Shown in pieces: positions 6,269 to 25,511 of a DNA stretch of 64,000 bases. Location: positions 3,100,001 through 3,164,000 of the forward strand of contig JAPYYK010000086.1 of the NCBI GenBank assembly GCA_028534125.1, read 5' to 3'. The notes below the pieces were generated by a model. That model was not told where the DNA came from. It was given only the letters and a program-made list of their open reading frames with translations, and searched no databases. The stretch is from Lama glama. Lineage: Eukaryota. How positions within the stretch are numbered: position 1 is the stretch's first letter; every line of letters begins with the position of its first letter. The position numbers and the translations under genes were made by a program.

Positions 6269-6401
6269 CTCCTCCCCCAGGCTTGCTGGGTCCTCCTGGT
6301 GACAGCGGGCCATTGCCAAAGCTGGTAAGGCTCTCTCTTCTTCCCGAAGGTCTGATGTTTCCATAGTAACGGTTGACCAAAATCTGCCTGAGGGCCTCAC
6401 C
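6269..6401 (-). CDS. ITPR1: ITPR1 exon GEALRQIL...SKPGGG(G) (PKA site RRES)
   Basis: 133 nt; aattaag| acceptor, GAG|gtaggc donor; phase 0/1. Confidence 0.95.
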
Positions 6402-9033
6402 CTTAATTCAAACAGGATAATGAAATCAGGTTCTGAATTTAATGCATAACTGAGCAACTAATATTGAAAAAAGAAAACCACAGGGGTAGTCAGTTCTAAT
6501 TGGCTCAGTCTCACTCAGTGAGAAGATAAATTATTGATAAAAGCATTTGGAAACTCTGAAGTTAAGTTCTTCAATATTTTCTCAGGAAACCAGATCATAA
6601 AAAGGCATCCATCTAGAATACGAAGTATCTGAAAGTGCTCTCTCTCACACACAGTGTTAAAGATAGAACATTAATTTGGAAGGGCAGCTAACAGTAACAA
6701 CAATGATACCAAAAAAAAAAAAAAAAAAACCCAAAAAGTCCCTTTGGGATAAGCCAAGAAAATTCAGACAAGATGAAAAATTTACAGGTCATCTTCCACA
6801 CAGCAATATGAAAATGTTACTCCAGCCACAGGACTTATTCCCAAGGTCCTAAGAAAACATTAAGATAGCAGAGTAAAATAAATAAATAAATAAATTACAT
6901 AAATGAAATAATAAGCCGGAAATAAGACTTTCTTACAGAAATAGTCAATGGACTAAATGGTAAAGAAAAAAAAATGCTACAGAAATTAAATTAGTGGCAG
7001 GTATCAGGTATGTCAGACAAGAAATAAGCAACGTGGATAAAATGACGAGGGGTTTGCTTTGAAATAATACGGGAGGAGAGGACTAGCTGGGTATAAACCA
7101 GACAAGAGTGAGCAAGAGCTGATAGCTGTTGAAGCTGCGTTACGAACGAGGGTTTGCAAAGCTCTTCAAAGTATGCATTTCAGATATATTATTTCCATGA
7201 TAAAAACTTAAAAAAAAATAAATATCAAAGGAATCCTGGGCAGGAGATACAACAACTCTTTTCCACAAATCCAATTAAAAAACAAATGAAACTCTGACTT
7301 GTTCTTGAATACTAAGGGCTACTGGTAACGCAGCGCAAAGCCGTAGGGCTGATTCTCAGCTCTGTCCCACCTGCGGTCATGCTGAGGGCCTCCCAGACCA
7401 CCTCTCAATCTGGAAGTTTCTAAAAGTCAAAGGCTGTGCGGATTGCCACCGGACCCTTTCCCAGGGACAACGTAGTAAGTCCTGGAGTTCCTCTGGTACC
7501 TCACTGCGAGGGGTAAGCGAGAAGTCTAGCAGAGGGAGGGCGTGTGGAAATACAGCAGGTCTCTAAAACAGAGGCTCAAGAGTTCCTCTGAAGAGGCGTG
7601 CAACTCTAACAGGAGTCAGGAGAATTCCAAGTGATTGGCTAATAAGCTCCAAGACTAGGTCTGGAGACTTCAAGGAGGGTGTTTGCAAAACAAGATGGGA
7701 AGGAGTAGACAGGAGGGAGAAGAGTGCCCTGAGGGTGTGGGGAGGCCAGGGCACCCTGAGGGAGGTGGGACCAGGATAAAGGCAGAAAACGCCTTAGTTC
7801 AACTGTCAAAATGACCTATGGGCCCAGGACTACACAGCCTGGTTCTTCTCGGTTACAGCCAAGCTGTGATTTCAAGACCCTGGGGACAAAAGGGGATAGG
7901 GTGGGAGGGAGGAGAGGGGAAGCAGTTCTGATTTTAAAATGAAAGTTCAGGAAAGAAAAAAAAAATCTTTATTTCCCCCTTCATTCCATCCACATATATG
8001 CGTCTCAATGTAGTTCCGCAAAGGAGAGCGCTTCCATTAGTACGTGAAACTCTTCCGACCTTGACCAATGGTAAATTCAAGATTTCGAGACTACTTCCAA
8101 AGGGGAAGCTCTTTGTGATTTCTAAAAATACTTTAAAAATAAACTGTTTGTGGTATAATATCCTTTAATGGCTTAGAAAATCGCATTTTGGTGTAAAGAT
8201 TGAGTTTTGCACCAGTACAAACACATCGACCGAAACTTTCCAAAGCTGTCACTGACAACATGGTGACTGTAAAAGGCTGACTTCATAAGACAAACATAAA
8301 TTTCAAAGGAATGTTCAAGAAAGCCTACTGAGAAAGAAAAAGGGGGACGACAAGGTCATGCCCATATTGAACAGAACAGGATATTAACTACCATTTCCCT
8401 TTGCTGACACAATGATGCATCTGTTTGATTTTCTTTCAAAAGGCACAGACTTTGAGTTCCCACAATAGGGATGGCTGGTGGGAAACCACCCCAATTTTCT
8501 ACTGGATTCTCATGGGCACCACAGAAACGGGTAAATGATTGAGAGGTAAATGGCTGGGCTGACACCTGCCAACTGCACCTCAGAAGACAGCCAATGGAGC
8601 CACAGTGTCAAGACTCTAGAAGGTCACAGGGCTGGCTGGTCAAAGGCAGGGTGACTGTCACCGGGCAACCAACACACGTGTCCTTTAAGGAAGTCTCAGC
8701 CAGAGCCTTCACACCTAGGATCAGAGTGGCTCTGCCAGATTCTCCGCTCCTCGTGGTTTTGAGGGTCATCAGCGAGAGCCTGGTCAGTTTGCAATCAAGG
8801 AAGCAAGAGGGCGAGAAAGGAGCACGTGCCGCTTGGGAACATGTGGACTCCAGGGACAGGAACTTCACATTTATGCAGCCTGGATGCCAAACTCAAGTTA
8901 CAAAGGGATCTCACATTACCATTTTGCCTCTCCTTTCACAGAAAAACCCTAGCAGTTACCATAGCAACTTATGCATCAAATGGTACATTTTTTCCCCTTA
9001 ACAGAATATCAGAAACAGTGTTCTTTATGGGAA

Positions 9034-9088: not shown

Positions 9089-9696
9089 CCACCCTACAAA
9101 CGAATTTTTTTCCCTCTTAACTGGAAGGTTTTTGGTACACATACACTTCACTTTCTCGCCACAAAATAAATAAATAAATAAAAATAAATTTTAAGGCAAG
9201 GGAAAAAAGAGAACATGTGGGATTTGCTTTTTAAAAAAAAATAAAAAAACAAGGTAAGATTCGTTCCTTTTCTGAAAAAATAAAGACTGAAAATTTAAGG
9301 TAAAAAAGGGACAGAAAGAGAACACGGATAAGCATTATTGAAAGTTATGCAAATCCCTAGTGTGAAAACTTAGGTTCAAGAAAAATGCTGTTTTTCTGAG
9401 CTAGTGGTTTAATTTAGGAAAAATTGAAATCTGCACAGAAAAGCCTTCCTAATCATCTTGATATAAAATTACTCAACGGCACTGAGCTGTTCACGGTGTA
9501 CCAGGCTGAGGAAGCGGATGGCAGAGAAGGAAAAAAAAAAAAGTGACTTCTCAAATAGCATCACTTCTCTGGCTGTAACATGTGGCCCGTGCAGTCCTTT
9601 TTTCAAGAACACTAGGTTTTCCCCAGCTGTTTATACCTACAGGATGCAAACAAAAGGTGTTTTGTCTCTGGTAAGAAATGCCGTGCACAATATTAC

Positions 9697-9702
9697 CTGA
9701 GA
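9697..9702 (-). other. Candidate 6-nt microexon (TCTCAG, Ser-Gln) or recursive splice site
   Basis: Minus strand ctctttacctttgtcttgtctcag|TCTCAG|gtaata, with about 90 nt free of AG upstream and ctgac branch-like motifs. Motif evidence only. Confidence 0.4.
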
Positions 9703-10194
9703 CTGAGACAAGACAAAGGTAAAGAGTTTCATTCGCAGTGTCAGGTGAGAACGGTGAAAACGGCAGGTCAGTGACGTGGAGTCAAGAAACCAAGCTCCTG
9801 CCCTGCAACTCGGTTCAGCCGAGTTTCATTCTGTCAGTTAGGCTAATGGCTAATTAACTGCTCGGGGACGCAGCCCAGCGTGGAACAAGGCACTCAGAGT
9901 TAACAGTGCCACAAGCAAAGGAGAGAAAAAGTGATCTCTAGGCTTTCCTGGTTCCAGCCACTTAAAAATCAGGTGCTTCAGGACAGATCACCCTCTCGTA
10001 TGAGCAGCAAGCCTCGCACACCTTAGTCAGCACTAAGGTAGCACCTCGATTTAAAAACACCTTCTTTTTCCTACACCTGGTGTCTGTCAAATCTCTGACG
10101 CATCTCAGTCTGCGAGGCAACCACCGCCATTAATACCCCTTCTCAGGGTCCAGCTGCTGTGCTGAGTGTTTCAAGGGCACAGCTCTGTAAAACA

Positions 10195-11712: not shown

Positions 11713-11760
11713 CCTTTTATGGTCTTCCAGTTGCCTCAGGGGTGGACTCGGCTCGACCTC
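11713..11760 (-). CDS. ITPR1: ITPR1 SII cassette exon 3, EVEPSPPLRQLEDHKR (48 nt; 51 nt to 11763 with the optional Q)
   Basis: ttag|cag|GAG tandem acceptor, AGG|gtacgt donor; SII-B/C peptide. Confidence 0.93.
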
Positions 11761-12952
11761 CTGCTAAGCATGCAGAAATTCCATTTAAGTAAGACACTAG
11801 GGAGACACGTCCAGCTTCAGGGTCAGTCACAAATAAGATGCACAGAGAGGGCGTGGACAGCGAAGACTTACACAGCAGGAGCAAAGGTCTGTTTTGGGTT
11901 TCCCCCCAAATACGAAGGCTCCATTCCTCCGGGTCCTGCTTCACAATCGCCCCATCGCCAACCCTACTGCACTGCTCAAAGTGAGCAGACACGTGATTTT
12001 TTGGGCCAAGATTATTTTTTGCAAGGATTATGAAAAGTAAGTTCGACATTCCATACATTTACATGAACCCAAAGGGGTTCCAATGCAAGACTCAACTGGG
12101 CAGGTCCCTGCGATTCAGACATGCATGACTGCACAGCACATGCGTGAGGACACGGATGCATACACTTCTGAGCAGACACACACATGGGACCTTGGCTCCC
12201 CCCAGCCCACCAGTACATGGCATTCTCATCCAGGCTACTGATGCTGAAGAGCGCTGACTGAGAATATTAGAGACCGATCATTGTAAACATCCATGCTGGA
12301 ATTCTGCTATTCCATCGTGTTTCAAATCTACACTCTTCTTTCAAATAAAATACATTTCATTTTAGCTTTGCCTCCTGTGGTTCTAGAACAATTTCTGCAA
12401 GGAAATTTTGATACTTGGAAATATGCCTCCTCCAAAAGCTTCTCTATGACTTTAGATGCCTTAGTTAATTTCAGTCCTTCATTTAGCAAGTTAGCGGCAG
12501 GAAGAACAGGAAGACTGCGTTGTGAAACCACTACTTGACTAGCAGCTCCCATCAAAACGATACATGAATATTCACAACTTCAAATTCACTTCATCTCTGC
12601 GCAGGACCCAGAGCTCTATTTTGTGTGGACCAGCAGAAAGGTCCAGACAGTCCAGCGTTTCTCAACTAAACACCCCAGGACTAAGACAAATGGTTTTATG
12701 TGAAAACCTTCTAAGAGTCACATCCCCTCTCCTGGAGCACACTTTGGTTTCAGCTCTAGCTGCTCAGAACTTTTCTTTCTGCACCAACAGCCACCCGATT
12801 ACAGCAATGACCAGGTCCCAGGCAGGCTAGAGACTCCCTCCGTCACCTGCCACCGGGACAGACACTCGACTACGACAGCTCGGACACTCAGCCAGGAACA
12901 CTGATAAGCACCATATTTGCTGGCACCGCAAATATAGGTGAGCAGCACACAC

Positions 12953-12988
12953 CTCGGTGGAATTCTCCGAGTCCGGAGCTTGGGGCAG
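12953..12988 (-). CDS. ITPR1: ITPR1 SII cassette exon 2, LPQAPDSENSTE (36 nt)
   Basis: actaac branch point, aaccag| acceptor, GAG|gtgtgt donor; SII peptide. Confidence 0.92.
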
Positions 12989-20924: not shown

Positions 20925-20957
20925 CTCAGCATTATCCAATTCATCTATGGAAATTAG
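20925..20957 (-). CDS. ITPR1: ITPR1 SII cassette exon 1, LISIDELDNAE (33 nt)
   Basis: cctaac branch point, long pyrimidine tract, ccag| acceptor, weak GAG|gtccta donor; peptide matches the start of the neuronal SII insert. Confidence 0.92.
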
Positions 20958-25399: not shown

Positions 25400-25511
25400 C
25401 TTTTCTCCATAGCCTCTGTCTTTGGTCATCATTTCTCTGAGGGTCTGTAGGACCTTAATGCAGAGTTTCTCCTCATTTTCCTCTAGCAGCTGTTTAGTAT
25501 GCTTTATTAAC
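25400..25511 (-). CDS. ITPR1: ITPR1 exon LIKHTKQL...DRGYGEK
   Basis: 112 nt; tattcag| acceptor, AAG|gtactg donor; phase 2/0. Confidence 0.95.

Follow-up and report, generated by a model that had tools for sequence, protein, structure and literature searches.

A microexon-like cluster of splice signals downstream of the SII cassette of ITPR1 in Lama glama

In the ITPR1 intron between the last SII exon and the constitutive exon starting GEALR, the genome of Lama glama contains an exon-like cluster of splice signals around the six nucleotides TCTCAG, which would encode Ser-Gln. The reading that we prefer, and to which we give about even weight, is that this cluster is a cryptic microexon skipped in nearly all transcripts, and not a fourth, regulated cassette of SII. 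The combination of signals is rarer than chance would usually give, which counts against a silent element, while the proteins and microexon catalogues examined provided no sign of its inclusion.

Results

The minus strand of the window (the whole stretch of DNA that was analysed, 64,000 nucleotides) carries part of ITPR1, a gene whose SII splicing is well studied. Using the near-identical database protein P0149 as a guide, we mapped 56 introns across the window plus 160 kb of genome on its flanks. The resulting intron map is supported because it recovers an intron with a non-canonical GA donor (aag/GAAAGT, window 48484, minus strand), like the GA-AG U2 intron of ITPR1 described in excerpts of the TOGA2 preprint. 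The SII segment is an exact match to two Camelus dromedarius entries; its segment B is a single Gln that comes from the tandem TAG CAG acceptor of the last SII exon, and mouse SII-C is entered in VastDB as MmuEX0024736. Every intron involved is phase 0, whether it follows the GYGEK exon, follows one of the SII exons or precedes GEALR, so that the map and the translation bear out the proposal of the first-pass annotation that Ser-Gln (SQ) would be added in frame. The candidate lies 2.0 kb into an intron of 5,311 nt, the mouse counterpart of which is about 5.6 kb long, and the acceptor at the end of this intron is weak, with a score of 3.8 that exceeds those of just 4 of the 56 real acceptors. 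The intron end ahead of the GEALR exon (window 6402-6470, minus strand) has a near-identical, WFHYPVWIK-like reading in several mammalian and bird-type read-through ORFs (P0001-P0006, P0015, P0020 and P0027), and this similarity suggests deep conservation around the weak acceptor. An apparent second genome copy of the region was rejected as an artefact: the contig (G000:C916804) consists of a sequence, a 100-N spacer and the reverse complement of that sequence, with the two 10-kb pairs tested identical in mirror position, and matches therefore appear twice.

Table 1. Window coordinates of the candidate element, its flanking motifs and the neighbouring ITPR1 exons
Feature	Position	Strand	Basis or score
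Candidate 6-nt exon TCTCAG (Ser-Gln, phase 0-0)	9697..9702	minus	letters, translation
First acceptor AG (AG1)	9703..9704	minus	matrix score 9.4
Second acceptor AG (AG2), zero-length AG/GT with donor	9697..9698	minus	score 10.3
Donor GTAATA (GT1)	9691..9696	minus	score 8.3
AG-free zone, 90 nt	9705..9794	minus	four YCAC, branch-like motifs, pyrimidine tract
TGCACG, 10 nt after donor	9682..9687	minus	letters
Second TGCACG	9588..9593	minus	letters
Further AG/GT, 60 nt downstream of candidate	9631..9638	minus	acceptor 8.9, donor -0.3
Constitutive exon ending GYGEK	25400..25510	minus	intron map
First SII exon, 33 nt	20925..20957	minus	intron map
Second SII exon, 36 nt	12953..12988	minus	intron map
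Last SII exon, 48 or 51 nt	11713..11763	minus	intron map
Downstream constitutive exon starting GEALR	6269..6401	minus	weak acceptor

The core of the candidate reads CAG/TCTCAG/GTAATA on the minus strand, and the motifs reported by the first-pass annotation were all recovered at their positions: the AG, the hexamer and the GTAATA of the core, an AG-free zone put at about 90 nt and found to be exactly that (the preceding AG sits at 9796-9795), two CTGAC branch-like motifs (at 9771 and 9744), four YCAC motifs (at 9779, 9774, 9757 and 9748) and two copies of TGCACG, which we take to be a secondary RBFOX-type motif here. The pyrimidine tract is about 22 nt long, and the nearest branch-like motif lies at about -39. 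Among 17,081 intron windows of 90 nt, 145 contained four YCAC, and among 16,973 of 110 nt, 2 contained two TGCACG. CpG content, at the 90th-94th percentile of intron windows, was not decisive. SRRM4-dependent microexons carry a TGC enhancer just before the AG. Within about 20 nt of the AG of the candidate there is no TGC, the only copies being at -35 and -63, and its downstream flank contains no TGCATG, only the two TGCACG; near the real SII exons, TGCATG occurs in seven copies between 19492 and 11774, all at or above the last SII exon. RNA folding, run without a control, gave only one perfect 7-bp hairpin with a 5-nt loop (about 9825-9807, minus strand), just upstream of the AG-free zone. The 9-mer AATGAAACT has three copies in 175 kb of introns, all inside 2 kb (window 11575, 9830 and 9733, minus strand), one copy following the last SII exon and two preceding the candidate; such clustering was seen for 10 of 9,975 three-copy 9-mers.

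Splice sites were scored with matrices built from ITPR1's own sites (56 acceptors and 54 donors), a small set. On this scale AG1 exceeds 32 of the 56 real acceptors and the donor 24 of the 54 real donors, so that the two sites, first described as both strong, are of middling strength. When rebuilt behind the upstream exon ends, the donor scores from 4.4 to 7.9 (7.1 behind GYGEK, 7.9 behind the first two SII exons and 4.4 behind the last). Seven other AGs in the same intron, AG2 among them, outscore AG1. Counting the acceptor-like AGs that reach the lower quartile of real sites gives 30 in this intron, and counting the donor-like GTs that reach the tenth percentile gives 13; neither site is therefore special alone. 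Strong acceptor-like sites (10.5-13.5) also occur in this intron at window 7879, 8327, 9271 and 9505 (minus strand), all scoring above the real downstream acceptor. The AG-free zone exceeds those of all 56 real acceptors (maximum 83 nt), and a long zone, of 74 nt, also precedes the real 33-nt SII exon.

We defined a microexon-like pair as an AG and a GT separated by 3 to 27 nt, with both sites at the lower quartile of real sites. Such pairs are common, numbering 28 in sense and 31 in antisense orientation in the 175 kb of introns. In 975 kb of control DNA there were 130 pairs at the loose scores, with an AG-free zone that reached 60 nt in 4 of them and 90 nt in 1; at the candidate's own scores there were 17 pairs, and in none did the zone reach 60 nt. 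These counts correspond to about 0.07-0.26 loose matches per 64-kb strand, and 40 locally shuffled copies of the 175 kb contained no instance of the combination. Because the matrices are small and the thresholds were chosen after the candidate was seen, this rarity is to be read as uncommon, not as functional. A second microexon-like site, of 18 nt and in frame, with scores of 9.4 and 8.8 and a 75-nt AG-free zone, is located in an ITPR1 intron of 16 kb, some 77 kb beyond window base 1.

The hexamer TCTCAG repeats in tandem, letter for letter, the six bases with which the acceptor ends. Exact copies were found in 47 of 6,892 AG pairs that lie 6 nt apart and after none of the 56 real acceptors, which suggests a micro-duplication of the acceptor end by slippage. 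Such a 6-nt duplication would have turned a plain AG/GT into AG-6nt-AG/GT. Removing one of the two copies leaves a clean AG/GT, and the 975 kb of control DNA contained no such site with an AG-free zone of at least 90 nt.

Inclusion of the hexamer was looked for in 245 ITPR1 proteins. None of the 203 that span the junction has SQ between a known upstream exon end and GEALR, whereas the other SII combinations all occur among them, the single-Gln B segment too; of the remainder, 18 are without the motif, and the other 24 comprise read-throughs of introns, fragments and odd models. This set is biased in that it was taken from the best 120 of 1,198 matches to a query without SQ and from at most 15 members per cluster. 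One of these 24, the fish-type protein P0036, has LLSQ before GEALR; it was rejected as an SQ isoform, the LLSQ being read as translation of the acceptor of its intron. The bird-type Logan protein P0022 begins MQ-GEALR, and none of the 14 other listed members of its cluster covers the junction.

Published catalogues were searched as well. The MicroExonator mouse table (PMC7821500, supplement 2; 2,988 rows), which is based on embryonic samples, has among the rows covered none on the plus strand in chr6:105.7-113.2 Mb, the orthologous mouse intron lying at about 108.38 Mb in mm9 numbering. The list of 310 novel human brain microexons in PMC4317164 has no 6-nt ITPR1 entry at its threshold of 5% inclusion in 15% of samples, its sole ITPR1 entry being of 33 nt. 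As 6-nt exons tend to be missed by gene models (PMC7821500, in part), the protein and catalogue negatives are biased against tiny exons, and for adult cerebellum they are weak. ITPR1 is also absent from the four supplementary files of PMC10156609. A search for sequencing runs listed 24, none of them with a neural label. Literature searches, the scope of which left out VastDB and some key papers, returned no description of the element, and it may for that reason be catalogued already.

A translated search of the intron gave three matches in one frame and none in another. Of these only P0247 is orthologous; P0246 and P0248 were rejected as repetitive chance matches. All three matches to a 19-nt pattern in metagenome contigs were rejected as unrelated, for want of homologous flanks. 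The translated ORF P0247 retains the reading LSQSQV, which is compatible with an intact core. Over the 26 codons that cover the element it has 3 differences, and an indel follows 40-45 nt downstream; the next 27, 13 and 12 comparable codons (52 in total) are all identical. P0247 looks like the product of a close relative, and related sequencing runs imply about 95-96% identity. The comparison, which covers this one close relative and is silent on distant mammals, shows no special constraint around the candidate.

With regard to the protein, the AlphaFold model of the SII-minus fragment has a mean pLDDT of 46.8, too weak to use, and in it the junction comes after a short turn, where a helix begins; in this low-confidence prediction SQ, if included, would stand at the helix start between SII (or GYGEK) and GEALR. 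An insertion of two residues there may do little. The argument that SQ would break a GYGEKG nucleotide-binding motif is weak, as excerpts of PMC9663519 describe the Walker-A-like GXGXXG motifs as dispensable for ATP modulation of IP3R1 and place ATP at the ILD/LNK interface.

Discussion

The function of the element is undecided, with a silent one more likely. In favour of a mostly skipped cryptic exon, its acceptor and donor are too near each other to be defined as an ordinary exon, and enhancers of the kind that regulated microexons typically carry are absent or present only in secondary form. With the sites too close and the TGC enhancer missing, SII or GYGEK would be joined straight to GEALR. 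Occasional use of AG1 would add SQ, while occasional use of AG2, followed by re-splicing at the rebuilt donor, would leave no trace. This skipped reading is favoured by the lack of SQ in all 203 junction-spanning proteins and by the absence of the element from the mouse and human microexon lists, and further by the tandem copy, the distance of the nearest TGC, the lack of TGCATG near the candidate and the differences in P0247. It is weakened because the combination of signals is rare, the density of YCAC and TGCACG is unusual, the core is kept in P0247 and the negatives are biased, and also because the intron adjoins a known alternatively spliced cassette and precedes a weak acceptor.

The first-pass annotation had offered the element as either a microexon or an AG/GT ratchet point, and the anatomy fits both and is less common than chance alone would tend to produce; what neither proteins nor catalogues supplied was an instance of SQ. 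A regulated, probably neuronal 6-nt microexon that adds Ser-Gln between SII (or GYGEK) and GEALR appears rather unlikely to us. In such an exon the long AG-free zone would steer the spliceosome to AG1, and the YCAC motifs above and the GCACG motifs below would set inclusion. The six nucleotides between AG and GT fall in the 3-27 nt class and preserve the frame, the zone is longer than that of any real acceptor, the core persists in a relative, and an unannotated ITPR1 microexon was found earlier elsewhere in the gene. However, excerpts of PMC4317164 describe symmetric alternative microexons as having flanks conserved over more than 75 nt and as enriched in TGCATG, while the flanks of the candidate vary even in P0247, TGCATG is missing downstream and TGC is missing near the AG, in addition to the absence from proteins and both catalogues. 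We consider it unlikely that the element is instead a recursive site, at which the upstream exon would be spliced to AG2, the donor rebuilt with GTAATA and the rest of the intron removed with no trace in the mRNA, SQ being a by-product of AG1 use. That reading would account for the absence of SQ; it agrees with the higher score of AG2 than of AG1, with the donors rebuilt behind GYGEK and the first two SII exons and with the clean AG/GT of the single-copy version, unmatched in the control DNA, and available parts of PMC10156609 report that recursive sites span a range of intron sizes and that cassette exons ending in YAG, at which re-splicing is described, are included less. Yet vertebrate recursive splicing starts with the definition of an RS-exon that has a downstream donor of its own (PMC6224609, in part), and the GT at 9636, 60 nt on, scores only -0.3, with no donor of at least 5.3 after the candidate until 8059 in the same intron, so that the donor required for a classical RS-exon is missing. 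Behind the last SII exon the rebuilt donor is weak as well, the intron is only 5.3 kb long, and plain AG/GT matches are frequent, with 18 in each orientation, sense and antisense, in 175 kb.

The microexon and ratchet readings are not mutually exclusive, because a 6-nt microexon can arise from a donor that lies 6 nt into a segment already spliced on (PMC6224609, in part) and because of the re-splicing described in PMC10156609 (in part). A two-way switch, in which a hidden fourth SII element would add Ser-Gln through AG1 and act as a silent ratchet point through AG2, the micro-duplication having made a microexon from a recursive site, seems to us decidedly unlikely. It is very unlikely that the acceptor belongs to a longer truncating exon, an unsupported reading in which the exon would end at the weak donor, as a decay target, or at the ATTAAA at 9413, as an alternative last exon, with loss of the channel domain. 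From either AG the frame runs for 19-21 codons (SQVILC...CIL) to a TAG at 9639-9637, exactly at the further AG/GT; the downstream constitutive acceptor is weak, and the products would not appear in full-length protein sets. On the other side, the donor directly at the acceptor should beat the weak one (8.3 versus -0.3), the frame is shifted by the indel in P0247, and stops and ATTAAA are frequent in introns.

Compared with neuronal alternative microexons, which are regulated by SRRM4/nSR100, RBFOX and PTBP1 and of which the 6-nt exon of the CACNA1 family (PMC4317164 and the TOGA2 preprint, both in part) is an example, the candidate is similar in its 6-nt length, its preserved frame, its place in a neural ion-channel gene, its upstream branch motif and tract and its downstream RBFOX-like motifs. 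It differs from them in that TGC within 20 nt of the AG and TGCATG are missing and in that it copies its own acceptor end. With recursive sites and RS-exons (Blazquez 2018, PMC6224609; distal exonic RS, Hoppe 2023, PMC10156609; both in part) it shares a tract and YAG followed by a donor, and in the available text on Blazquez's reporter a donor 6 nt inside the spliced-on segment likewise gave a 6-nt cryptic microexon; unlike these, it has no downstream donor that would define an RS-exon, and its intron is short. It adjoins the ITPR1 SII cassette (33, 36 and 48/51 nt), in the same region and phase, but whereas the SII exons are present in annotated proteins in many combinations, SQ is present in none.

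IP3R1 is the main calcium-release channel of Purkinje cells and the product of an ataxia gene (PMC6981692, in part). If the candidate is silent, as we favour, it would be an ordinary pseudo-exon; if it is real, it would join classes that are already known, and an overlooked exon would add an ITPR1 isoform and a target for deep-intronic variants. A microexon born by duplication of an acceptor would also be a neat example of such an origin.
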